Part shown: one piece after another, positions 3 to 26,297 of the stretch
How positions within the stretch are numbered: the stretch's first letter is position 1
Layout: each line of letters opens with the position of its first letter
Origin: Microcystis aeruginosa NIES-2549
GTDB taxonomy: Bacteria > Cyanobacteriota > Cyanobacteriia > Cyanobacteriales > Microcystaceae
Direction of reading: 5' to 3'
Length of the DNA stretch: 32,000 bases
Assembly (NCBI RefSeq): GCF_000981785.2
Contig: NZ_CP011304.1
Location: 810,001-842,000 of the forward strand
Position numbers and translations under genes: made by a program
The notes under the pieces: generated by a model
Told to the model about the DNA's origin: nothing
Database searches by the model: none
Seen by the model: only the letters and a program-made list of their open reading frames with translations

Positions 3-3000
3 ACGGGCGGCAATTCTGCCACGTCTCCCAATACTGTCAGTCTGGTTCACACAGTTAATTTGGCGGCGGGTCAGGTAGCGACAGGGATTGACTTTGGTAA
101 TGAGACTGTTAACGTCGGCCCTACTGATTTAGCCTTAAGTGCGACAACAGTAAATGAAAATGTTGCCCCCAATACAGTGATTGGAACATTTTCTAGCACA
201 GACCCCGATACTGGCAATACCTTTACCTATAGTTTAATAGCAGGAACAGGAGATACAGATAATACTGCCTTCTCGATTGTAGGGAATCAATTACAGATTA
301 ATAATTCCCCGGATTTTGAAACCAAAAATAGTTACAGTATTCGGGTAAAAACCACAGACCAAGGGGGACTAAGTTTTGAGAAAACCTTGACAATTACTGT
401 CAATGATGTTAATGAAAATCCTAGTAATCAAGCTCCGACGGATTTAGCATTAAGTGCCACTACAGTAGATGAAAATGTTCCTGTTAACACAGTGATTGGA
501 ACATTTTCCAGCACAGACCCCGATACTGGCAATACCTTTACCTATAGTTTAATAGCAGGAACAGGAGATACAGATAATACTGCCTTCTCGATTGTAGGGA
601 ATCAATTACAGATTAATAATTCCCCGGATTTTGAAACCAAAAATAGTTACAGTATTCGGGTAAAAACCACAGACCAAGGGGGACTAAGTTTTGAGAAAAC
701 CTTGACAATTACTGTCAATGATGTTAATGAAAATCCTAGTAATCAAGCTCCGACGGATTTAGCATTAAGTGCCACTACAGTAGATGAAAATGTTCCTGTT
801 AACACAGTGATTGGAACATTTTCCAGCACAGACCCCGATACTGGTAATAGCTTTACCTATAGTTTGATAGCAGGAACAGGAGATACAGATAACTCAGCAT
901 TCTCGATTGTGGGGAATCAATTACAGATTAATAATTCCCCCGATTTTGAAACCAAAAATAGTTACAGTATTCGGGTAAAAACCACAGACCAAGGGGGACT
1001 AAGTTTTGAGAAAACCTTGACAATTACTGTCAATGATGTTAATGAAAATCCTAGTAATCAAGCTCCGACGGATTTAGCATTAAGTGCCACTACAGTAGAT
1101 GAAAATGTTCCTGTTAACACAGTGATTGGAACATTTTCCAGTACAGACCCCGATACTGGTAATAGCTTTACCTATAGTTTGATAGCAGGAACAGGAGATA
1201 CAGATAACTCAGCATTCTCGATTGTGGGGAATCAATTACAGATTAATAATTCCCCAGATTTTGAAACCAAAAATAGTTACAGTATTCGGGTAAAAACCAC
1301 AGACCAAGGGGGACTCAGTTTTGAGAAAACCTTGACAATTACTGTCAATGATGTTAATGAAAATCCTAGTAATCAAGCTCCGACGGATTTAGCATTAAGT
1401 GCCACTACAGTAGATGAAAATGTTCCTGTTAACACAGTAATTGGAACATTTTCTACCACAGACCCCGATACTGGTAATAGCTTTACCTATAGTTTAATAG
1501 CAGGAACAGGAGATACAGATAATACTGCCTTCTCGATTGTAGGGAATCAATTACAGATTAATAATTCCCCCGATTTTGAAACCAAGAATAGTTACAGTAT
1601 TCGGGTAAAAACCACAGACCAAGGGGGACTCAGTTTTGAGAAAACCTTGACAATTACTGTCAATGATGTTAATGAAAATCCTAGTAATCAAGCTCCGACG
1701 GATTTAGCATTAAGTGCCACTACAGTAGATGAAAATGTTCCTGTTAACACAGTGATTGGAACATTTTCTACCACAGACCCCGATACTGGTAATAGCTTTA
1801 CCTATAGTTTAATAGCAGGAACAGGAGATACAGATAATACTGCCTTCTCGATTGTGGGGAATCAATTACAGATTAATAATTCCCCCGATTTTGAAACCAA
1901 AAATAGTTACAGTATTCGGGTAAAAACCACAGACCAAGGGGGACTAAGTTTTGAGAAAACCTTGACAATTACTGTCAATGATGTTAACGAAACACCAACA
2001 GATTTACTTTTAAGTGCCACTACCGTAAATGAAAATGTTGCCCCCAATACAGTGATTGGAACATTTTCCAGTACAGACCCCGATACTGGTAATAGCTTTA
2101 CCTATAGTTTGATAGCAGGAACAGGAGATACAGATAACTCAGCATTCTCGATTGTGGGGAATCAATTACAGATTAATAATTCCCCCGATTTTGAAACCAA
2201 AAATAGTTACAGTATTCGGGTAAAAACCACAGACCAAGGGGGACTAAGTTTTGAGAAAACCTTGACAATTACTGTCAATGATGTTAATGAAAATCCTAGT
2301 AATCAAGCTCCGACGGATTTAGCATTAAGTGCCACTACAGTAGATGAAAATGTTCCTGTTAACACAGTGATTGGAACATTTTCCAGCACAGACCCCGATA
2401 CTGGTAATAGCTTTACCTATAGTTTAATAGCAGGAACAGGAGATACAGATAATACTGCCTTCTCGATTGTGGGGAATCAATTACAGATTAATAATTCCCC
2501 CGATTTTGAAACCAAAAATAGTTACAGTATTCGGGTAAAAACCACAGACCAAGGGGGACTAAGTGTTGAGAAAACCTTGACAATTACTGTCAATGATGTT
2601 AACGAAACACCAACAGATTTACTTTTAAGTGCCACTACCGTAAATGAAAATGTTGCCCCCAATACAGTGATTGGAACATTTTCCAGTACAGACCCCGATA
2701 CTGGTAATAGCTTTACCTATAGTTTGATAGCAGGAACAGGAGATACAGATAACTCAGCATTCTCGATTGTGGGGAATCAATTACAGATTAATAATTCCCC
2801 CGATTTTGAAACCAAAAATAGTTACAGTATTCGGGTAAAAACCACAGACCAAGGGGGACTAAGTTTTGAGAAAACCTTGACAATTACTGTCAATGATGTT
2901 AATGAAAATCCTAGTAATCAAGCTCCGACGGATTTAGCATTAAGTGCCACTACAGTAGATGAAAATGTTCCTGTTAACACAGTGATTGGAACATTTTCCA

Positions 3001-4850
3001 GCACAGACCCCGATACTGGTAATAACTTTACCTATAGTTTGATAGCAGGAACAGGAGATACAGATAACTCAGCATTCTCGATTGTGGGGAATCAATTACA
3101 GATTAATAATTCCCCCGATTTTGAAACCAAAAATAGTTACAGTATTCGGGTAAAAACCACAGACCAAGGGGGACTAAGTTTTGAGAAAACCTTGACAATT
3201 ACTGTCAATGATGTTAATGAAACTCCCGGTAATCAAGCTCCAACAAATTTAGCATTAAGTGCCACTACAGTAAATGAAAATGTCCCTGTTAACACAGTAA
3301 TTGGAACATTTTCTAGCACAGACCCCGATACTGGTAATAACTTTACCTATAGTTTAATAGCAGGAACAGGAGATACAGATAATACTGCCTTCTCGATTGT
3401 AGGGAATCAATTACAGATTAATAATTCCCCCGATTTTGAAACCAAGAATAGTTACAGTATTCGGGTAAAAACCACCGATCAAGGGGGACTAAGTTTTGAG
3501 AAAACCTTGACAATTACTGTCAATGATGTTAATGAAACTCCCGGTAATCAAGCTCCCACAGCCCTAATTTTCCAAAATGCTGTCACCGAGTTAGCTGAAA
3601 ATGTCGATGTCACACCAGAATTTAAAGTCGCCGATCTCCTGATTGAAGATGATGGTTTAGGAACCAATAATCTCTTCCTCACGGGACGGGATAGGGAGCG
3701 CTTCTTAATTCAGAATTCGGCTCTTTTCTATGTCGGTTTTACTCCTAATTTTGAAGCTCAAAACAGTTACGAAGTCACCGTCAATGTCGATGATACAACC
3801 GTTGGTGTCACCCCCGATCTCACCCAAACCTTAACTTTAAACATCACCGATGTCAACGAAGCTCCCACAGCCCTAATTCTTGCTAATAGCACCAATACGA
3901 TCGCTGAAAATACCGATACCAGTCAAGGTGTCAAAGTTGCCGATATTCAGATCAGCGATGATGCCTTGGGGACCAATAGCCTTTCTTTGTTGGGCAGTGA
4001 TCAGAGCAGTTTCCAGATTCGTGGCCGGGAATTATTCTTCATCGGTAAGGCTGATTTTGAAGCCCAATCCCTCTATAATCTGACGGTGGCGGTAACGGAT
4101 ACCACCCTCAACCCGGCTCCCAATGCCACGCCAGACGCAACGGTTAATTTCACCCTAGAAATTACCAATCTACCCGACCAAGACGTTAATCCCCAGGCCC
4201 TTGAATTTAAAAATACGGGCAATGGACAGGTTTCTCTGGTTTTCAACTTCAGTAACTTGCCCAGTAGCATACAGGTCACAGCCATTGAGGAGGGACTCCA
4301 ACAGACGGGAGCCTTCTTCAATAACGTTGTCGGTCTCTATCCAGTGGCGGATGACAACGGAGCCGTTTTTGACAGCCTCGATTTAGATGGAGATGGCAAC
4401 GTGACAGAGTTAATTCAACCCGGTCAAGCGGGTTATGCGCGTAGTGCCTTAAGTCAAGCAGTGAATAACTTCATTTTGCGGGCCAGTGGAGAAGGGGCAA
4501 ACCAAAGCACCACCGCCGCTGAATTTAACGAAGGGGATGTGTTGTTGGAAGGAGGGCGACGCTACGCACCCTTTGTGATTGCCAATGGCGGCAATCTGGG
4601 AGAAAGTCTGCAAGGGAGTATTCAGGCATTTTTGACCAAGAATCCCGATAATGTGGCGGCTACCCTAGAAAACTATATGAGTCATGAGGTGGCCTATTTC
4701 TCCTTTGGCTCGGCAAATCCCGATGGGGCGGAACATTTACGGTCAAGGGGGAATAATATCTTTGGCTTTGAGGATTTACCGGGGAACTTACCCAATATCA
4801 GCGATAACGATTTTAATGATGGGATTTTGGCGTTTAATTTTATTGCTTAA
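3..4850 (+). CDS. Giant secreted/surface adhesin-like protein, 5'-partial: SdrD-B-like end, 11 near-identical plus 2 diverged cadherin-like repeats, C-terminal DUF4114-like domain
   Basis: The frame of the listed ORF (60..4850, TTG) stays open back to the window edge (..TGGNSATSPNTVSLVHTVNLAAGQVATGIDFGN), so the gene starts upstream. Each unit carries cadherin hallmarks (ENV..NTVIGTFS.TDPDTGN.FTYSL..G.GD.DN..F.I.GNQL...DFE....Y.I.V..TD.GGLS....LTI.V.DVNE.P). The C-terminus ..FGFEDLPGNL.NISDNDFNDGILAFNF matches my memory of DUF4114. Confidence 0.85.
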   Translation, partial: TGGNSATSPNTVSLVHTVNLAAGQVATGIDFGNETVNVGPTDLALSATTVNENVAPNTVIGTFSSTDPDTGNTFTYSLIAGTGDTDNTAFSIVGNQLQINNSPDFETKNSYSIRVKTTDQGGLSFEKTLTITVNDVNENPSNQAPTDLALSATTVDENVPVNTVIGTFSSTDPDTGNTFTYSLIAGTGDTDNTAFSIVGNQLQINNSPDFETKNSYSIRVKTTDQGGLSFEKTLTITVNDVNENPSNQAPTDLALSATTVDENVPVNTVIGTFSSTDPDTGNSFTYSLIAGTGDTDNSAFSIVGNQLQINNSPDFETKNSYSIRVKTTDQGGLSFEKTLTITVNDVNENPSNQAPTDLALSATTVDENVPVNTVIGTFSSTDPDTGNSFTYSLIAGTGDTDNSAFSIVGNQLQINNSPDFETKNSYSIRVKTTDQGGLSFEKTLTITVNDVNENPSNQAPTDLALSATTVDENVPVNTVIGTFSTTDPDTGNSFTYSLIAGTGDTDNTAFSIVGNQLQINNSPDFETKNSYSIRVKTTDQGGLSFEKTLTITVNDVNENPSNQAPTDLALSATTVDENVPVNTVIGTFSTTDPDTGNSFTYSLIAGTGDTDNTAFSIVGNQLQINNSPDFETKNSYSIRVKTTDQGGLSFEKTLTITVNDVNETPTDLLLSATTVNENVAPNTVIGTFSSTDPDTGNSFTYSLIAGTGDTDNSAFSIVGNQLQINNSPDFETKNSYSIRVKTTDQGGLSFEKTLTITVNDVNENPSNQAPTDLALSATTVDENVPVNTVIGTFSSTDPDTGNSFTYSLIAGTGDTDNTAFSIVGNQLQINNSPDFETKNSYSIRVKTTDQGGLSVEKTLTITVNDVNETPTDLLLSATTVNENVAPNTVIGTFSSTDPDTGNSFTYSLIAGTGDTDNSAFSIVGNQLQINNSPDFETKNSYSIRVKTTDQGGLSFEKTLTITVNDVNENPSNQAPTDLALSATTVDENVPVNTVIGTFSSTDPDTGNNFTYSLIAGTGDTDNSAFSIVGNQLQINNSPDFETKNSYSIRVKTTDQGGLSFEKTLTITVNDVNETPGNQAPTNLALSATTVNENVPVNTVIGTFSSTDPDTGNNFTYSLIAGTGDTDNTAFSIVGNQLQINNSPDFETKNSYSIRVKTTDQGGLSFEKTLTITVNDVNETPGNQAPTALIFQNAVTELAENVDVTPEFKVADLLIEDDGLGTNNLFLTGRDRERFLIQNSALFYVGFTPNFEAQNSYEVTVNVDDTTVGVTPDLTQTLTLNITDVNEAPTALILANSTNTIAENTDTSQGVKVADIQISDDALGTNSLSLLGSDQSSFQIRGRELFFIGKADFEAQSLYNLTVAVTDTTLNPAPNATPDATVNFTLEITNLPDQDVNPQALEFKNTGNGQVSLVFNFSNLPSSIQVTAIEEGLQQTGAFFNNVVGLYPVADDNGAVFDSLDLDGDGNVTELIQPGQAGYARSALSQAVNNFILRASGEGANQSTTAAEFNEGDVLLEGGRRYAPFVIANGGNLGESLQGSIQAFLTKNPDNVAATLENYMSHEVAYFSFGSANPDGAEHLRSRGNNIFGFEDLPGNLPNISDNDFNDGILAFNFIA
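120..3554 (+). repeat. In-frame tandem array of 11 near-identical units, nine of 315 bp and two of 300 bp, each encoding one cadherin-like domain
   Basis: The unit start CCGACGGATTTAGCATTAAGT recurs at about 435 and 750, a period of 315. The arithmetic 9x315 + 2x300 = 3435 nt matches 120..3554 exactly. Units differ at only a handful of nucleotides. Confidence 0.95.
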
Positions 4851-11442: not shown

Positions 11443-11934
11443 ATGATGAATATTACCATCCCCACTCTCTACGATAGCGATTATCAACTTTGGTTAGAAA
11501 ACACTATCAACCAATTGCGTCAAGGCGATTTTCAAGGGGTAGATTGGCAGAATTTATTAGAGGAGTTGGCAGATTTGGGGAAAAGTGAACGAAGAGCATT
11601 AGCCAGTTTATTAACTCGACTTTTAGAACATTTACTGAAGTTAACTTACTGGCAATCCCAACGGGATTATAATCAAGCAGGATGGAAAGGGGAAATTAGA
11701 ACCTTTCGGAAACAAATCAAGAAAATACTGAGAGATAGTCCCAGTCTCAAACCCTATTTATGCGAGATACTTGAGGAATGTTACAGCGATGCTCGGGAGA
11801 TAATTATTGATATAACCCAATTAGATGCCAGTATTTTCCCTGGGGAAGTGTCAGCTAGTCTAGAGGAGATTCTCGATGAAAATTGGCTGCCGGATTGGGA
11901 AGCTATCAGCAAGGATTCTGAAAAGTGCAATTAA
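11443..11934 (+). CDS. DUF29-family protein (paralog 1)
   Basis: LYD.DY.LW...T...LR.GDF...DW.NL.EEL..LGKSERRAL.S.L..LL.HLLK..YW matches my memory of DUF29. The start may be the second ATG at 11446. Confidence 0.8.
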   Translation: MMNITIPTLYDSDYQLWLENTINQLRQGDFQGVDWQNLLEELADLGKSERRALASLLTRLLEHLLKLTYWQSQRDYNQAGWKGEIRTFRKQIKKILRDSPSLKPYLCEILEECYSDAREIIIDITQLDASIFPGEVSASLEEILDENWLPDWEAISKDSEKCN

Positions 11935-11947
11935 GGAGTAAAAAATC

Positions 11948-12439
11948 ATGAATATTACCATCCCAAATCTTTACGATAGCGATTATCAACTTTGGTTAGA
12001 GTCCACTATCAACCAATTGCGTCGGGGGGATTTTCAAGCGGTAGATTGGCAGAATTTATTAGAGGAGTTGGCAGATTTGGGAAAAAATAATCGACGAGCG
12101 CTTAAGAGTCTCTTAACTCGACTTCTAGAACATTTACTGAAGTTAACCTACTGGCAATCCCAACGAGATTACAACCAAGCGGGATGGAAAAAAGAAATCA
12201 GGAATTTTCGCCTACAAATTGCTGATCTTTTAGCAGATAGTCCCAGTTTAAAGTCCTATTTAAGGGAAATTTTAGCAAAATGTTATCTCGATGCTCGCAA
12301 TCTGCTTATTGACGAAACCCAATTAGATGCCAGTATTTTCCCCGGGGAAGTGTTAGCTAATCTAGAGGAGATTCTCGATGAAAATTGGTTGCCGGATTGG
12401 GAAGATATAAACAGGGATAAATCTTCCGAGGTGAACTAA
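11948..12439 (+). CDS. DUF29-family protein (paralog 2, tandem duplicate)
   Basis: It is collinear with the preceding ORF and about four-fifths identical by my hand alignment. Only 13 nt separate the two. Confidence 0.8.
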   Translation: MNITIPNLYDSDYQLWLESTINQLRRGDFQAVDWQNLLEELADLGKNNRRALKSLLTRLLEHLLKLTYWQSQRDYNQAGWKKEIRNFRLQIADLLADSPSLKSYLREILAKCYLDARNLLIDETQLDASIFPGEVLANLEEILDENWLPDWEDINRDKSSEVN

Positions 12440-12448
12440 AGATTAGCT

Positions 12449-12829
12449 TCACCTACCCGGTTTACAGACATTATAGTCCTCGTGAGAGATCACCGCCTCC
12501 GGGACGAGGAGATTGCCGTAGTCGCGACAGATGAGGCGATAATTGCGGGTAACGGGGATACTGATAATAAAGCGATCGTGTCGCAATCGTTTCCCGTGGA
12601 AATCTCGATAATTGCGGTGATCTTGCAATCCTTGCAGGATTTCCCTAGCTTTAAGTACCACATTTTTCGGTAATTCCCGCAGATCGATCGGATCTTCGGA
12701 AAAAGTGGCTTCCCAGGCATTTTTTTGACGTTTTCTTTCTTCCCAAGCGGCGTCCCGTTGAGCGCAATGATGGCAGACTTGGCCATAGCCCTTGTGACCA
12801 CAGGGAAACTTCTTCTTTCTTCTGGACAT
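12449..12829 (-). CDS. ParE/RelE-fold toxin-like protein with an N-terminal Cys/His (zinc-knuckle-like) cluster
   Basis: The C-terminal GKRLRHDRFIISIPVTRNYRLICRDYGNLLVPEAVISHEDYN follows the RelE/ParE pattern (kLkG..ysiRi...yRliy......v.i.....H.dY). The N-terminal part is KKKFPCGHKGYGQVCHHCAQ. Confidence 0.6.
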   Translation of the reverse strand: MSRRKKKFPCGHKGYGQVCHHCAQRDAAWEERKRQKNAWEATFSEDPIDLRELPKNVVLKAREILQGLQDHRNYRDFHGKRLRHDRFIISIPVTRNYRLICRDYGNLLVPEAVISHEDYNVCKPGR

Positions 12830-14088: not shown

Positions 14089-14371
14089 GGTTCCCTCCCG
14101 ATGCAAGTATGGACAACGCTCGCATCATCCTATTTTATAGGCCACATATATTACAAATTGGTTCGATCGCTCCGTATATTTCGCTACATTCCTCTGTTAA
14201 TCAGTCTTTAAGTAGTCAGGCAAAATTAATTACCGACCACAGAGGGCTGAAAGCCTTGCTAGACAAGGATCGCTATGGGTAAATAATTTTACCCAGATAC
14301 TTGATATCCCCTACTGCCCGCTCTCGACGATTATTTTAAATGCCTAAAAGTTGAGCCTGAAAAAATATTGC

Positions 14372-15058
14372 TTATCTTGATTCTTCCTGACTGAGATGAC
14401 GTAGTTTATCTCGAAAATAGCCAAAGCTGGGCGATCGATTAATATCCACATTCATCTGAGGAGAAATATTTTCTGCCCAGACTGTTTTCTCTTGACCCAC
14501 AGAAGCTCCACCTAACTTAGATAATTGTTTCGCTCCACCTCTGTATATAGCATCTGCCAGTTTTTCCCAAGTACCACAGATACTATCATTAATATAGGAA
14601 TCCAAGATAGCACTTTTGGCCTGGGGATAAGCAATTTTTATGGCATTAATATCACCTAAATACCAAGCTTCTCCTTCTTCAATAGCAATACAGAAGTAAA
14701 TTTGGGATTGGATAGCAGATTTTTCCAGACAATTGCTTAATTCCTCTCGAAATTCCCGAAAACATCGATTATCCAGATCGCAAACCACGATCAGTACAGC
14801 AGCATAATTATCAGGGTAACTAGAAAAAGTTTTATCATATCCTTGAATCAGTTTAGGTAGTCGCTCAAGAAGAATCCGTTTGCTCGGATCGGAAACAGAC
14901 TGTAAGTCTCTGGGAAGATGACCACTGCCTTTATAGGAATGAACCCTAAATGTATGACCTGCATTCATGTCAATAATCCTAGGAATTAGAATATCAAGTG
15001 CTTTTTTTCCCGACAAATCCTCAACCAAAATTTCAAAGTGCATGACCTTATCTCTCAT
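14372..15058 (-). CDS. Small TOPRIM-like protein (DUF4276-like), partner of the upstream ATPase
   Basis: The acidic motifs HFEILVEDLSG, VVCDLDN and IAIEEGEAWYLGD fit the E...DxD...ExEA[WL] pattern I associate with DUF4276 and OLD-type TOPRIM domains. The start is ATG 15058 (11-nt overlap with the ATPase) or ATG 15043 (4 nt after its stop). Confidence 0.65.
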   Translation of the reverse strand: MRDKVMHFEILVEDLSGKKALDILIPRIIDMNAGHTFRVHSYKGSGHLPRDLQSVSDPSKRILLERLPKLIQGYDKTFSSYPDNYAAVLIVVCDLDNRCFREFREELSNCLEKSAIQSQIYFCIAIEEGEAWYLGDINAIKIAYPQAKSAILDSYINDSICGTWEKLADAIYRGGAKQLSKLGGASVGQEKTVWAENISPQMNVDINRSPSFGYFRDKLRHLSQEESR

Positions 15059-16337
15059 CTAAGTAATCACTATACCAAAGACTACCAAGGGGCAATCCTT
15101 CTGAGACGAGATTCTTGATTAAGGGATTGTCACTGGCCCGTTTAATCCGAGAAAAACCATCATCACCTTTTTCCAGAATCCAAACTTCTTCCGGCTGGAG
15201 AGCATCAACAAAATAAGGTTGATGAGTGGTGATAAAAATTTGAGAACGTCCTCTCTGTCCTGTGGCGTGTTTTCTAAATTCTTGAGCCAAGGTTTCTAAT
15301 AGTTTATGGTATAAGCCGTTTTCTGGCTCTTCAATACAGATAAATGGCGGTGGAGAAGGGTCTTCTAACAGTAAGAGATAGGCGAATACTTTTAAAGTAC
15401 CATCGGACATTTGCTGTACATAAAATGGGTCTTGGAATCCCCGATCATTAAATTTTAATAGTAGTCGATTATCGGGACTTTTTTCGGTGCTAATTTTTTC
15501 TATACCCGGTATCTTACGAGAAATACTATTAAGTATATTCTGAAATTTCTTGGAATGCTCTCTTTCCATAAACTGCACCACATTACCGAGATTATCTCCA
15601 TGGATATTGAGATGTTTCTGGGGTCCTGCTAGGGGCAAACTTCTGGCCGCATCGGGAGTAAAATAGCTGAGATACCATCCCTCAATAAATCTCCGAAATA
15701 GGGAAATTCTCGGATGCTGTTTGAGAGAACCTAACGTAGCAATTCCTAGTTTGCGCTTATCATTCAGTTCCACTAACTCGGTTTCCTTGCTTTCCTCATC
15801 AGCTTCTCGTTGAATTTTTTCTATTAACTTAAATAAATCAAAATGGTCTTGACCTTCTTCTACTTGTTTCCCTTCTTCTTCTCCTTTCCAAACGATTCCT
15901 TTCCCTTCATCGAGGATTAAAAATGAACAAGGCCATCCGGTCTTTTGACCTTTTCTTCTCTGTCTGAGTCTTTCTTTTTTTACATAAGGTCTATTATCCG
16001 TATCTAGATCAATAGCTAATTCATAGGTAATTGGTCGGGAATTGTAATCTTCTTTGTAATAAATCTGAAATTCAATGCTTCCTTCCTGACCCTGGGAACG
16101 AAGACGATCAAACCCACCCCGACCTCGCGCATCACAAGCTTCTTCTACTCCTCCTTTAAGACAATCAGATAAAAAACCGAACGCATCAAAAAGTGTGCTT
16201 TTTCCCACACCATTTTTGCCGATAACGGCCGTCATCGGTGTCAGAGAATCTCGATTTTGAGTGTTCCATAACTTGCCCAGGGTTATATCCTTGAGCGCTC
16301 GATAATTTTTAATCCTCAATCCCTCAATTCCGGCCAT
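15048..16337 (-). CDS. ABC/SMC-type AAA_15/AAA_21-like ATPase (COG4637-like)
   Basis: It has Walker A GKNGVGKST (aa 40-48, nt 16194-16220), the signature-like MSDGT, Walker B FICIEEPENGLY and the H-loop FITTHQP. A charged insertion lies between the Walker motifs. Confidence 0.85.
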   Translation of the reverse strand: MAGIEGLRIKNYRALKDITLGKLWNTQNRDSLTPMTAVIGKNGVGKSTLFDAFGFLSDCLKGGVEEACDARGRGGFDRLRSQGQEGSIEFQIYYKEDYNSRPITYELAIDLDTDNRPYVKKERLRQRRKGQKTGWPCSFLILDEGKGIVWKGEEEGKQVEEGQDHFDLFKLIEKIQREADEESKETELVELNDKRKLGIATLGSLKQHPRISLFRRFIEGWYLSYFTPDAARSLPLAGPQKHLNIHGDNLGNVVQFMEREHSKKFQNILNSISRKIPGIEKISTEKSPDNRLLLKFNDRGFQDPFYVQQMSDGTLKVFAYLLLLEDPSPPPFICIEEPENGLYHKLLETLAQEFRKHATGQRGRSQIFITTHQPYFVDALQPEEVWILEKGDDGFSRIKRASDNPLIKNLVSEGLPLGSLWYSDYLDER

Positions 16338-16411: not shown

Positions 16412-19400
16412 TTACTGACCCGATTCGATCGCTCCTTCGGCCTCATGGACAATTGCCCTCAATCGATCTAAAGTTTTCTGGTCCACCTGGGTCCATAATC
16501 CCCGTTGTTGAGCCTCTAATAATCTTTCGGCCATATCTCGCAATGCCCAGGGGTTTTTCTCCTGAATAAATTGTTGTACCTTGTCGTCAAATAAATAAGC
16601 TTCGGCTACTCCCTGATAGATAAAATCCTCCACTAGGTGAGTAGTGGCAGAGTAGGCAAAAATATAATCTACGGTCGCAGCCATCTCGAAAGCGCCTTTA
16701 TAGCCGTGTCGCATCACTCCCGCTATCCATTTGGGATTAACCACTCGCGAGCGGTAAACGCGGCGAATTTCTTCCTCTAGGGTTCTGATGCGGGGATTTT
16801 CCGGACGGGAATGATCACCAAAATAGGTGACGGGATTTTTGCCGGTTAATGCCCGGACACTGGCAGTTAAGCCGCCTTGAAATTGATAGTAGTCATCGGA
16901 GTCGAAAATATCGTGTTCTCGATTGTCCTGATTGTGCAGCACTATCTCTAATTCTTGCAGTCTATTTCTCAATACTTCCGGTAAAGAATGGGCAGTTCCT
17001 TGGCTATTATATGCATAACAACTCCAGTTAATATAAGCATTAGCTAAGTCTTGATCATTTTGCCAGTTTTGTGACTCGATTAACCCCTGTAAACCGGCCC
17101 CGTAAGCACCCGGTTTGCAGCCAAAGATTCTGGCAGTAGCTCTCAGTTTCGCCTCTTTTTCTCCTAAGCCCTGACTTAGCCAAAACTCCCTCTCTGTCTT
17201 GACTTTCGCCGCTAAAGGATTAATTTTTTCCTCTTCCTCTTGACAAGCTACCGCATTTATGCCAGAATTAAGAAGATGTAGTATGCTGGGGAAACTGTCC
17301 CTAAAAAAGCCCGATACCCGAACAGTCACATCAATACGAGGACGGCCTAAGCTAGACGGGGTAAGGATTTCAAACCCGACCACCCGACGGAAAAAACCAT
17401 CCCAAAGGGGACGAATTCCCAGTAAAGCCATGGCTTCGGCCACATCTTCGCCACTATTTCTCATCGTCGAAGTTCCCCAGATAGAAATCGCCAAAGTGCG
17501 GGGATATTCGCCATTTTCTTGGGTATAACGTTCAATTAGTGCCTCTGCGGCCTTTCTTCCCACTTCCCATGCGGTTTCTGTGGGGATTGCGCGGGTATCG
17601 ACAGAATAGAAATTTCTGCCGGTGGGGAGAACATCGGGACGGCCGCGGGTAGGAGCGCCAGAAGCACCACTGGGGACGTATTCGCCAGCGAGACCTTTTA
17701 AGAGATAGGTAAGTTCATCGGGAGTTTGTTTTAAAGCAGGAATTAACTGATTTTCTAGCCAAACTAATTCTTTTGCCGTATTTTCGCCTACAGGTTCAAT
17801 TTTCCGGCTAATTAAATCCTGAGCGAGACCTTCCAGATAAGTAGTAGTATCGTTATATTCCGTCAGGGGGTCGCAGTCGAGATGGAGGTCAAGGGCAAGG
17901 GAACGGGTTAAACCGGGGCGGTCGGGACTGGGAGAACGAGCAATCGATTGGATTAAATCAATTAACTGCTGACCCTGGGGACATTGACCGAAGATATGTA
18001 AACCGTCGCGGATTTGTGCTTCCTTGAGTTCACAGAGATAACCATCCACGACGGTGAGAAATTGACCAAAGGAAGCGCTGGTCGCAACGCGCTCGCTACG
18101 CGAGATCGTGCCTAGCTCTCGATCGAGATTAGTTTTCGCCACCAGATCGTTAATCCGCTCGCGAATCAGAGCTAAACGAGAAGGATCAAGAGATTCTGCC
18201 TGATAATATTCATCGATGAGGGACTCTAACTTTTCCCAATCTCCATACAATTCCGCTCGCGTCATTGGGGGGGTGAGATGGTCGATGATAACAGCTTGGG
18301 AACGTCTTTTAGCGCTGGACCCTTCTCCGGGGTCATTGACAATAAACGGATAAAAATTCGGCAGCGACGAGAAAGCAATTTCGGGATAACAATGGGGAGA
18401 AAGAGCGAGACTCTTCCCGGGTAGCCATTCTAAATTGCCGTGTTTACCGAGATTAATCACAGCAGTGACTTGGAATTCCTGTCGTAACCAATGGTAAAAA
18501 GCGAGATAGCTGTGGGTAGGTTCCAGGTCGGGGGAATGATAATTAAGAGTCGGGTCAAGGTCATAACCGCGAGAAGGTTGAATACCGATAAAGACATTAC
18601 CTAACTGGATGCCGGGGATAGGAAAATCCTTGTCTGGATATCCCCAACGGTCAAGCAGAGCGCTTTGATTATCGGGGGGAAGGGAGGAGAAATAATCTAG
18701 ATATGCTTCTAGGGAGAGAGATTGATAGATAGGTTTTAATTCCCTTGTCTCCAGGTCATTAGTGATACCGGAAATCAGCAATCGCATTAATTCATCGCTA
18801 TGGTCGGGGAGGTCGGTGAGGGTATAACCTTGGGTTTGTAGTGCGCGAAGAATTTCCAAACCACTAGCGGGAGTATCTAAACCAACTCCGTTAGCGATAC
18901 GACCATCCTTATTGGGATAGTTGGGGAAAATGAGAGCAATTTTTTTCTGGGAGTTGGGAAGGGAGGAGAGTTGACAATAGTTTGCGGTTAAATCAGCGAC
19001 AAAATCAACCCGGTGGGGGAGGGGTTGATAGATAACTATTTCCGTTTCTAGTTTGGGATGTCGGGTGAGGACAGATTTAAAGGAAATAGCACGGGTGATA
19101 ATTTTGCCATCCATTTCCGGTAAAGCGATATTCATGGCCACATCCCGGGGGGAAAGACCTTGATAACCCTGTTGATAAGCTTCTAAACTGCTGCTGCTGA
19201 GGATTACTTGGAAGATGGGTTTATTGAGGGACTGCCAGAAGTGATGATTTTGTTTGTCTTCCGGTCGCTGGATAGAGAAGCTAGTGGTGTCGAGAATTAA
19301 GTCTGGGGGATGGTGGGAAAAGAGGGTTAATAGTTCCTCTTGCACTTCAATTTCCCGGAGAGAGGAGAGAAAGATAGGGACAGTTTCAATGTTTCTTTGG

Positions 19401-25712: not shown

Positions 25713-26297
25713 TTAGGATACTTCAATCGCGGTAAAATCGACACGCTGATATAAATCTGTCAGGGATATTTGAAAATCTAGAGAAAACAGAGTTAAAATC
25801 GCTTCTTGGCTGTGATAATCCCGGAATGCCCAATGATCGCCTCTTTTATGAAATTGTTCTATATAATAACCATATTGATCGATTAAAATATATTCTTCAA
25901 AACTATTAAGAGAGCGATAAAATTTAAACTTATCACCCCGATTATAGTCTTGAGTAGATTTTGATAAAACCTCGATAATAACCTGTGGATTGGTAATCGT
26001 ATCGGTGCGTCCTCTTTCAAGAATTGGTTCCCCCTTAACGATCATAATATCGGGATAGGTGTACATATTATAGGCGGGTATTGCCAAGCGTAGATCGTTG
26101 ATAAATATATCATAGGCTTGATTCTGGATAGTTAAGGGAAATTTTCTACAGAAATTCAAGGCAATGCGATTATGGTTAGGAGTTCCCCCAGTCATAATAA
26201 TAATTTCTCCATCTCGATACTCGTGTCTGTCGGTGGCAGCTTCCTCTAGTTGAAAGTATTCTGCGACTGTGTAGCGTTTCTCAGTGGTTGCGACCAT
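25713..26297 (-). CDS. Uma2-family (DUF820) PD-(D/E)xK putative endonuclease
   Basis: YTVAEY..LEE.....HEY.DGEI..M.GGT.NHN.I, PDIMIV, IIEVLSKST...D...KF..Y......EY.LIDQ is the typical Uma2 pattern, a family expanded in cyanobacteria. Confidence 0.85.
   Translation of the reverse strand: MVATTEKRYTVAEYFQLEEAATDRHEYRDGEIIIMTGGTPNHNRIALNFCRKFPLTIQNQAYDIFINDLRLAIPAYNMYTYPDIMIVKGEPILERGRTDTITNPQVIIEVLSKSTQDYNRGDKFKFYRSLNSFEEYILIDQYGYYIEQFHKRGDHWAFRDYHSQEAILTLFSLDFQISLTDLYQRVDFTAIEVS

Follow-up and report, generated by a model that had tools for sequence, protein, structure and literature searches.

A two-gene HEC-01-type pair of an ABC ATPase and a DUF4276/TOPRIM-like protein in Microcystis aeruginosa

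We analyzed a 32,000-nucleotide (nt) segment of the Microcystis aeruginosa chromosome (the window) that carries two adjacent genes, one for an ATP-binding cassette (ABC) ATPase and one for a small DUF4276 protein with the acidic motifs of TOPRIM nucleases. By sequence, the pair is of the HEC-01 type (Hma-embedded candidate 01), an ABC ATPase and TOPRIM pair described by Payne et al. 2024 (bioRxiv 10.1101/2024.01.29.577857). Reasoning by analogy, we favor, with real reserve, a self-contained two-gene operon in which the ABC ATPase would control a metal-dependent TOPRIM nuclease directed against phages or mobile elements. An earlier note on this DNA had presented the pair as uncharacterized, provided that no existing tool already classified it; PADLOC-DB v2 does. 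What is new here is a distinct HEC-01 subfamily in which the ATPase adjoins its partner in 80 of 80 related loci over bacteria and archaea, with a conserved junction, no conserved third gene, strong evolutionary constraint, and a mostly chromosomal location.

Two open reading frames (ORFs), both on the minus strand as are all features of the pair given below, have the lengths of 429 and 228 amino acids (aa) that the note had reported: the ATPase at 15048–16337 and the partner at 14372–15058 when read from its first ATG. The partner gene as we define it below runs from 14372 to 15043 and encodes 223 aa. In PADLOC-DB v2, the ATPase is called by the HEC-01A model PDLC04182 (E = 9.2e-202, residues 1–428 on profile positions 1–402 of 406) and the partner by the HEC-01B model PDLC04205 (E = 1.4e-94, residues 6–221 on profile positions 1–211 of 213). 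These two matches, together with adjacency on one strand, assign the pair to the HEC-01 type. The ATPase also matches PDLC04144 (6.6e-94). That model is named HEC-01B, and PDLC04143, which is named HEC-01A, matches the partner (1.3e-11), so the two PADLOC names look swapped. The ATPase is 100% identical to amyaer_0798 of M. aeruginosa NIES-2481, and copies that are 98–100% identical are present in many Microcystis strains.

The pair thus belongs to an already catalogued kind of system, and the claim that no characterized system is built on a DUF4276 module does not hold. HEC-01 pairs have been tested against phages twice, and Mad3/Mad4 of the experimentally studied methylation-associated defense system (MADS; Maestri et al. 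2024, as cited in PMC12065111 and PMC11464382) is, as those papers present it, the same module of an AAA_15/21 ABC ATPase and a DUF4276 TOPRIM protein. DUF4276 itself is a known TOPRIM family: the Menshen paper (PMC12065111) treats DUF4276 (Mad4) and RloB, which have the canonical glutamate and DxD motif, as new members of TOPRIM, and the PARIS paper counts “MADS3-4” among ABC-ATPase/TOPRIM systems and includes DUF4276 in its domain annotation. For HEC-01, Payne et al. 2024 (bioRxiv 10.1101/2024.01.29.577857) found the metal site conserved relative to the B. pseudomallei OLD protein (6NK8).

The ATPase matches Pfam AAA_21 (4.5e-51) and AAA_15 (1.4e-16), the class to which the note had assigned it; SMC_N and AAA_23 match as well. 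Every motif that had been quoted for either protein, including the charged insertion, is present. Conservation of the ATPase was measured on 77 full-length homologs. The Walker A motif or P-loop, GKNGVGKST (16194–16220, residues 40–48), contains the P-loop lysine Lys46, and its G, K, N, G, G, K, and S residues are 100% conserved. Ser311, Asp312, Gly313, and Thr314 of the ABC signature-like MSDGT (15396–15410, residues 310–314) are invariant, as is the H-loop TTHQP from Thr370 to Pro374 (15216–15230). The Walker B motif, FICIEEPE (15321–15344, residues 332–339), had been singled out as unusual for its double glutamate. We reject this reading, as IEEPE is 99% conserved in the family and the corresponding IIEEPE of the class 2 OLD nuclease 6P74 aligns with it. 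With Walker A, a signature-like motif, Walker B with its catalytic glutamate, and the H-loop all there, the protein is identified by its motifs as an ABC ATPase of the SMC/Rad50/OLD-like clade. The charged helical insert (15750–15887, residues about 151–196) holds the minimum of conservation, at residues 151–180 (0.54–0.67, versus 0.85–0.99 elsewhere), and is a candidate sensor surface of the ATPase. A search of the Protein Data Bank (PDB) with the single ATPase sequence gave no match, and a search with the ATPase profile gave marginal, P-loop-centered matches only.

The partner scores 32.5 bits against Pfam DUF4276 (E = 1.3e-7), above the gathering cutoff of 30.2, and DUF4276 is matched by all 30 of the aligned partner homologs. 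No other TOPRIM-related Pfam family, including DUF4435, RloB, and Toprim_OLD, is matched in these homologs at E ≤ 5. The three motifs read by the note, FEILVEDLSG, VVCDLDN, and IAIEEGEAWYLGD, are all present, with acidic residues that are invariant in the 30 homologs. Under the TOPRIM rule, a conserved glutamate follows strand 1 and a DxD motif follows strand 3 (PMC12065111). The partner conforms to this pattern: its putative catalytic Glu8 (with Asp9, in ILVED at the end of strand 1; 15017–15022) and its putative metal-binding Asp89-Leu90-Asp91 (in VVCDLDN; 14771–14779) sit at the ends of predicted strands 2–7 and 82–87, and Glu8, Asp9, Cys88, Asp89, Leu90, and Asp91 do not vary. A second acidic cluster, EEGE (Glu122–Glu125 in IAIEEGEAW; 14669–14680), is invariant at Glu123 and Glu125 and probably serves as a ligand for a second metal, judging from the two-metal mechanisms of OLD and AriB. 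Further invariant residues mark the C-terminal helical half of the protein (Trp159, Glu160, Gly169, Gly170, Lys186, Trp189, and the motif N-x-SPSF-x-YFR). A PDB search with the partner profile returned nothing meaningful, and the TOPRIM assignment follows from the motifs together with the Pfam match and the analyses already in print, in line with the DUF4276-type, TOPRIM-style protein that had been proposed.

The partner family is large, with 4033 homologs in a 90%-identity database and, after clustering at 50%, 724 representatives at E ≤ 1e-3. Nearly all full-length representatives are about 205–235 aa long, which points to a protein that stands alone and is not commonly part of a fusion; no ATPase-partner fusion was seen among the best 150 representatives.

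The genes meet at 15041–15058, where the last ATPase codons and the TAA stop (15048–15050) are followed by a 4-nt spacer (15044–15047) and the partner ATG (15041–15043), in the order GAG AGA TAA GGTC ATG CAC TTT. Two partner starts had been considered, ATG 15058, which would overlap the ATPase by 11 nt, and ATG 15043, which follows the 4-nt spacer. Both geometries are as described, but 15058 is not the true start. In every one of the 80 related loci the partner begins with ATG-CAY-TTT (Met-His-Phe), alignment to the HEC-01B and DUF4276 profiles sets in only at residues 6–7 of the 228-aa form, and partner homologs are 218–222 aa long; together, these place the start at 15043 and give a protein of 223 aa. 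Most loci share the arrangement of a stop codon, 4 nt, and an ATG, and in most of the 80 the last ATPase codon and stop read AGG-TGA, which creates a Shine-Dalgarno-like GAGGTGA 4–5 nt 5′ of the ATG. Because this sequence spans the ATPase stop, the stop codon would lie inside the ribosome-binding site as part of a conserved coupling device, of which the Microcystis junction (AGA-TAA-GGTC) is a weaker version. The layout is thus suited to translational coupling of the partner to the ATPase, supporting what the note had suggested for the single locus.

These loci were found with partner-derived patterns alone, searched in one genome per species (185,579 species genomes). At least 562 relatives were recovered, and the locus statistics rest on the best 80 of them, which span Cyanobacteria, Desulfobacterota, Gammaproteobacteria, Spirochaetota, Planctomycetota, Latescibacterota, Ignavibacteriales, and methanogenic or anaerobic methanotrophic (ANME) archaea. 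The ATPase lies directly upstream of the partner on the same strand in all 80. Since the loci were retrieved through the partner only, the pairing goes far beyond chance, and the co-occurrence across genomes that had been anticipated is found. No third gene is conserved with the pair when ORFs of 80 aa or more lying within about 6 kb are clustered across the 80 loci; there is only lineage-specific synteny. Pairwise distances of the ATPase and the partner are correlated (Mantel r = 0.59, a value reached in 0 of 999 permutations), which supports co-evolution of the two proteins. Among the archaeal copies are those of a Methanolobus (L037), a Methanosarcinaceae member (L043), and an ANME-3 metagenome-assembled genome (MAG; L069). 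In a Microcoleaceae MAG (L008:4713–5993), the ATPase contains an internal stop codon and is either a pseudogene or an assembly error. This homolog is the only one that could be cited for the idea that the adjacency is fortuitous or the ORFs nonfunctional, an artifact of motif reading, and we found no support for that idea. It is refuted by the unbroken adjacency, by ratios of nonsynonymous to synonymous substitution (ω) far below 1 for both genes, by the thousands of homologs, and by the full-length family-profile matches of both proteins, and we give it practically no credence.

Within HEC-01, the closest comparison is with the pair tested by Payne et al., which comes from Pseudomonas agarici and consists of 395-aa and 192-aa proteins (their Table S2). 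The two pairs share the two-gene, ATPase-first architecture of an ABC ATPase and a DUF4276/TOPRIM protein. The ATPases are 37% identical end to end (E = 7e-86), with 19 residues of the charged insert in the window ATPase lacking a counterpart in P. agarici. The partner families align at the profile level only (hhalign probability 84%, E = 7e-6, about 29% identity), with the glutamate (LLEE), DxD (DQD), and acidic-cluster motifs in register, and the window partner, at 223 aa, is about 30 residues longer than the 192-aa HEC-01B of P. agarici. The P. agarici genes overlap by 4 nt, whereas those in the window are 4 nt apart. The 37% ATPase identity and the profile-level similarity of the partners set the window pair apart as a distinct HEC-01 subfamily with its own PADLOC models.

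The pair also differs from other systems that combine an ABC ATPase with a TOPRIM nuclease. Its ATPase matches mad3 models (PADLOC 6.5e-26; NCBIfam MADS3 1.3e-29), but with 103.7 bits for NCBIfam antiphage_MADS3, where the cutoff is 420, it does not qualify as an equivalog, and no methyltransferase or other mad gene is present in the window or as a conserved neighbor. With PARIS, to which it had been likened, it shares the order of an ABC ATPase (AAA_15/21) followed by a separate TOPRIM nuclease. In PARIS, AriA belongs to a hexameric scaffold clade and frees the tRNase AriB upon sensing a trigger, and a similar logic of sensor ATPase and released nuclease is plausible for the window pair. The likeness does not extend to membership. 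AriB is a DUF4435 protein of 35 kDa, whereas the window partner is a smaller DUF4276 protein, and neither it nor any of its 30 homologs matches DUF4435 or AriB at E ≤ 5. The PADLOC “AriA” model PDLC02980 does match the window ATPase (8.4e-48), but its length and coordinates are those of the generic Pfam AAA_21, so this appears to be a match to a generic domain model. The AriA chains 8UX9 and 8V45 in the PDB are reached by the ATPase profile only at E = 0.4. PARIS is, moreover, often phage-encoded, whereas the window family is nearly absent from viral data.

OLD and the Gabija protein GajA combine an ABC ATPase with an IEEPE-type Walker B and a TOPRIM nuclease with the glutamate and DxD motifs, as the window pair does. 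They differ in having both parts fused in one polypeptide, whereas the window and related loci keep them in separate ORFs with a stop codon between. The window partner has no Toprim_OLD match in Pfam, and no GajB-like UvrD helicase neighbors the pair. AbiL (AbiLi/AbiLii) and RloB-type systems likewise place an AAA_21-type ATPase before a small TOPRIM-like protein. The window ATPase matches AbiLi at 1.7e-26, far below the scores of the HEC-01 models, and the partner matches neither RloB nor AbiLii. Judged on defining sequence features, the pair is not PARIS, OLD, Gabija, or MADS.

PARIS (AriA/AriB), OLD, and Gabija nevertheless provide the analogy from which a mechanism can be proposed. The leading gene supplies the SMC/Rad50-like ABC ATPase, with its motifs intact, and the nuclease would be translated by coupling through the ribosome-binding site that overlaps the ATPase stop. 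This small DUF4276 protein would combine a metal-dependent TOPRIM nuclease center (Glu, DxD, and ExE) with the conserved C-terminal helical domain. ATP-dependent dimers or oligomers of the ATPase may hold or regulate the nuclease. The variable charged insert would probably serve to read a cue from an infecting phage or another mobile element; that cue would shift the nucleotide state of the ATPase, and the altered ATPase would activate or release the nuclease. By cleaving DNA, tRNA, or other RNA, the nuclease would then halt replication, either the invader's or the cell's own. The invariance across phyla of the ATPase motifs and of Glu8, Asp89/Asp91, and Glu123/Glu125 in the partner argues for catalytic competence of both predicted enzymes. 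A link to defense is suggested by the Hma-embedded discovery of HEC-01, one HEC-01 representative that protects, the kinship with Mad3/Mad4, some defense-related neighbors, a copy on a conjugative plasmid, the patchy spread of the family, and a low G+C content at third codon positions (GC3).

A number of observations, from structure, phage tests, genomic context, and evolution, weigh against a nuclease system for defense. The structural support for the TOPRIM fold is weak by itself. The partner model (pLDDT, the predicted score in the local distance difference test, 73.5; predicted template modeling score 0.73) shows alternating strand-helix units through the third strand, but the expected fourth strand (FCIAIEE) is poorly modeled. 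Its top two Foldseek matches in the PDB, the class 1 OLD TOPRIM regions 6NK8_A and 6NJV, favor the TOPRIM reading, although they are weak (E = 0.027–0.036, template modeling (TM) score 0.37–0.44). The ATPase model, built from a 15-sequence alignment, is of low confidence (pLDDT 62.8). It matches the heads of SMC, Rad50, and SbcC, retron ATPases, and, weakly, GajA, at a TM score of about 0.2, and with these values it supports only the designation “ABC ATPase” and no specific family. The phage tests disagree. The P. agarici pair gave no protection against any phage of the coliphage panel (Payne et al. 2024, bioRxiv 10.1101/2024.01.29.577857), a negative result that concerns, by the sequence comparison above, another subfamily than the window pair. 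A cold-seep metagenome study, by contrast, reports a HEC-01 representative that conferred on E. coli B protection from at least one phage among T7, T5, and T4. Both tests used lytic phages only.

The surroundings of the pair are for the most part not those of a defense island. Housekeeping genes are the nearest neighbors in the window and in the majority of the 80 loci, and they are also the recurrent neighbors overall. The 136 nearest-neighbor ORFs match 149 Pfam families, of which few are defense-related (BrxHI/II, HmaA, DrmD-like, and PglZ); HmaA is matched in 2 of the 136. Some loci adjoin PglZ/BrxH, HmaA, or DrmD-like genes of BREX, Hma, and DISARM-like systems. Viral sequences hold next to nothing of the pair: the patterns used recovered 0 relatives from IMG/VR, and GenBank phages yielded one close match, on an unverified 11-kb fecal contig at 50% identity, plus distant RecF-like matches. 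We reject a phage origin on these grounds. Plasmids carry the pair in 4 of 72,556 records, and it is mostly chromosomal. This near absence from phages, IMG/VR, and plasmids speaks against the proposed role as well.

Selection on the pair is strong. The ATPase of the 80 loci is 57–87%, mostly 74–87%, identical to the window copy, and synonymous sites are saturated in almost all pairwise comparisons; among the estimable pairs, the ATPase has a median ω of 0.078 and the partner one of 0.16. The archaeal ATPases of L037 and L043 are 82–83% identical to Desulfobacterota and Gammaproteobacteria copies, again with saturated synonymous divergence (dS). High identity at saturated dS indicates long-term purifying selection, and recent horizontal transfer as its cause is rejected. 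The archaeal pair is, on this sequence evidence, an old cross-domain transfer held under strong constraint. So low an ω, with 57–87% identity across phyla, is unlike typical fast-evolving immune sensors.

Constraint of this kind would also suit a module that is not immune but serves cellular nucleic-acid maintenance, in repair or RNA processing, in the manner of Rad50/SbcC or of the TOPRIM protein RNase M5. In that case the ATPase would recognize a cellular nucleic-acid structure that does not vary and bring the nuclease to it. The 82–83% identity of archaeal and bacterial ATPases and the Rad50, SbcC, and SMC heads among the fold matches of the model are compatible with such a role, as are the largely non-defense neighbors, the scarcity in viral and plasmid collections, and the negative screen of Payne et al. 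So is the placement of the pair, which is stable beside cobN in Microcystis and syntenic with housekeeping genes in Nostocales. The distribution argues otherwise: at least 562 relatives in 185,579 species genomes make a patchy, cross-domain pattern that, as the sequences indicate, requires horizontal transfer, and GC3 in the pair is 0.28–0.32 against 0.37–0.51 in the flanking core genes (cobN, pgk, zwf, and a ROK-family gene), which fits old horizontal acquisition or low expression. A maintenance function is further at odds with the conjugative-plasmid copy, the loci beside BREX, Hma, and DISARM-like genes, the apparent pseudogene in L008, and the fact that the nearest characterized relatives are all defense modules, one HEC-01 pair having given phage protection. 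We regard it as unlikely.

About as improbable, in our estimate, is a selfish module for addiction or exclusion, of toxin-antitoxin (TA) type, in which the ATPase would restrain a TOPRIM toxin and the pair would persist through harmful loss, or through exclusion of competing plasmids and mobile elements rather than phages. Pfam describes AAA_21 as a “putative AbiEii toxin, type IV TA system”, and the coupled order of ATPase and nuclease would make the regulator before the nuclease. On plasmid pGLE121P3 (NC_021212.1, 5704–7663; L081), a conjugative Antarctic Pseudomonas plasmid, the pair occurs with the same 4-nt spacing between genes of a type IV secretion system (beside a phospholipase D family gene) and a MobF relaxase; its place on a conjugative plasmid next to stability genes would fit addiction. 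So would the break in homology at the 3′ end of the pair between Microcystis strains, and the restriction of the published tests, one of them negative, to lytic phages. TA pairs, however, are usually small, fast-evolving, and multi-copy, whereas this pair is highly conserved and rare on plasmids, and its intact ABC signature would point to ATP-driven dimerization and sensing rather than to simple neutralization.

The break itself is visible when Microcystis strains are compared. On the cobN side, synteny is kept at 97–98%, and on the other side homology ends at window position 14372, the partner stop codon, in locus L002 and at 14305, 67 nt beyond, in L001. Ending at or near the partner stop, it places a rearrangement breakpoint against the 3′ end of the operon. 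The pair is flanked at 14162–14173 and 16424–16435 by an exact 12-nt direct repeat, TTCGATCGCTCC. We do not take this repeat as an insertion scar, since it contains the HIP1-like core GATCGC and one of the copies falls within cobN; it is probably a chance occurrence.

In the window, the pair sits between cobN and an APH-family kinase-like gene, and the flanking genes include psaL, pgk, and zwf/opcA. PADLOC recognizes no other gene closer to the pair than about 5 kb. It is not embedded in an Hma system here; the Hma context was the setting of discovery and is not required for detection. The window contains no tRNA genes and no Rfam families, and a promoter and terminator scan gave no signal above shuffled expectation. 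Tandem DUF29 paralogs of 163 aa each, 13 nt apart and without a PADLOC match, are encoded on the plus strand at 11443–11934 and 11948–12439. On the minus strand at 12449–12829 is a 126-aa protein with an N-terminal zinc-binding DUF7682 and a ParE-like toxin domain, for which we identified no cognate antitoxin. At 25713–26297 on the minus strand, a protein of the Uma2 family (putative restriction endonuclease-like) matches the PADLOC single-gene candidate PDC-S03 (6.8e-23), and Uma2 and PDC-S03 genes are among the commonest neighbors of the pair in other cyanobacteria. A 1596-aa protein with 11 cadherin repeats and a C-terminal DUF4114 is encoded on the plus strand at 60–4850, in a stretch of low G+C content (0.37–0.38).

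As a discovery the pair adds little: PADLOC already lists the module as HEC-01, the literature has it as Mad3/Mad4, and DUF4276 has been recognized before as a TOPRIM family. The subfamily, however, is very large and sharply delimited; its predicted catalytic residues do not vary, its architecture is fixed at two genes, and the constraint on it is unusually strong. It occurs widely in bloom-forming Microcystis and in Nostocales that are tractable. These properties make it a clean candidate for the biochemistry of how ABC ATPases control TOPRIM nucleases, and they allow one to ask whether a highly conserved “defense” module truly acts in defense. The 57–87% ATPase identity, the 82–83% identity of the archaeal copies at saturated dS, and the chromosomal housekeeping contexts lead us to raise a further idea, for which we would claim only a slim chance: that this HEC-01 subfamily, rather than sensing phage proteins that vary in the classical way, is a “guard” or genome-surveillance nuclease whose ATPase reads a ligand that does not change, for example a universal nucleic-acid structure, a tRNA, or some conserved process of the cell. 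If so, its target would be conserved and common to Bacteria and Archaea, and the pair would follow a design principle other than that of PARIS-like sensors with their fast-evolving trigger-binding surfaces.

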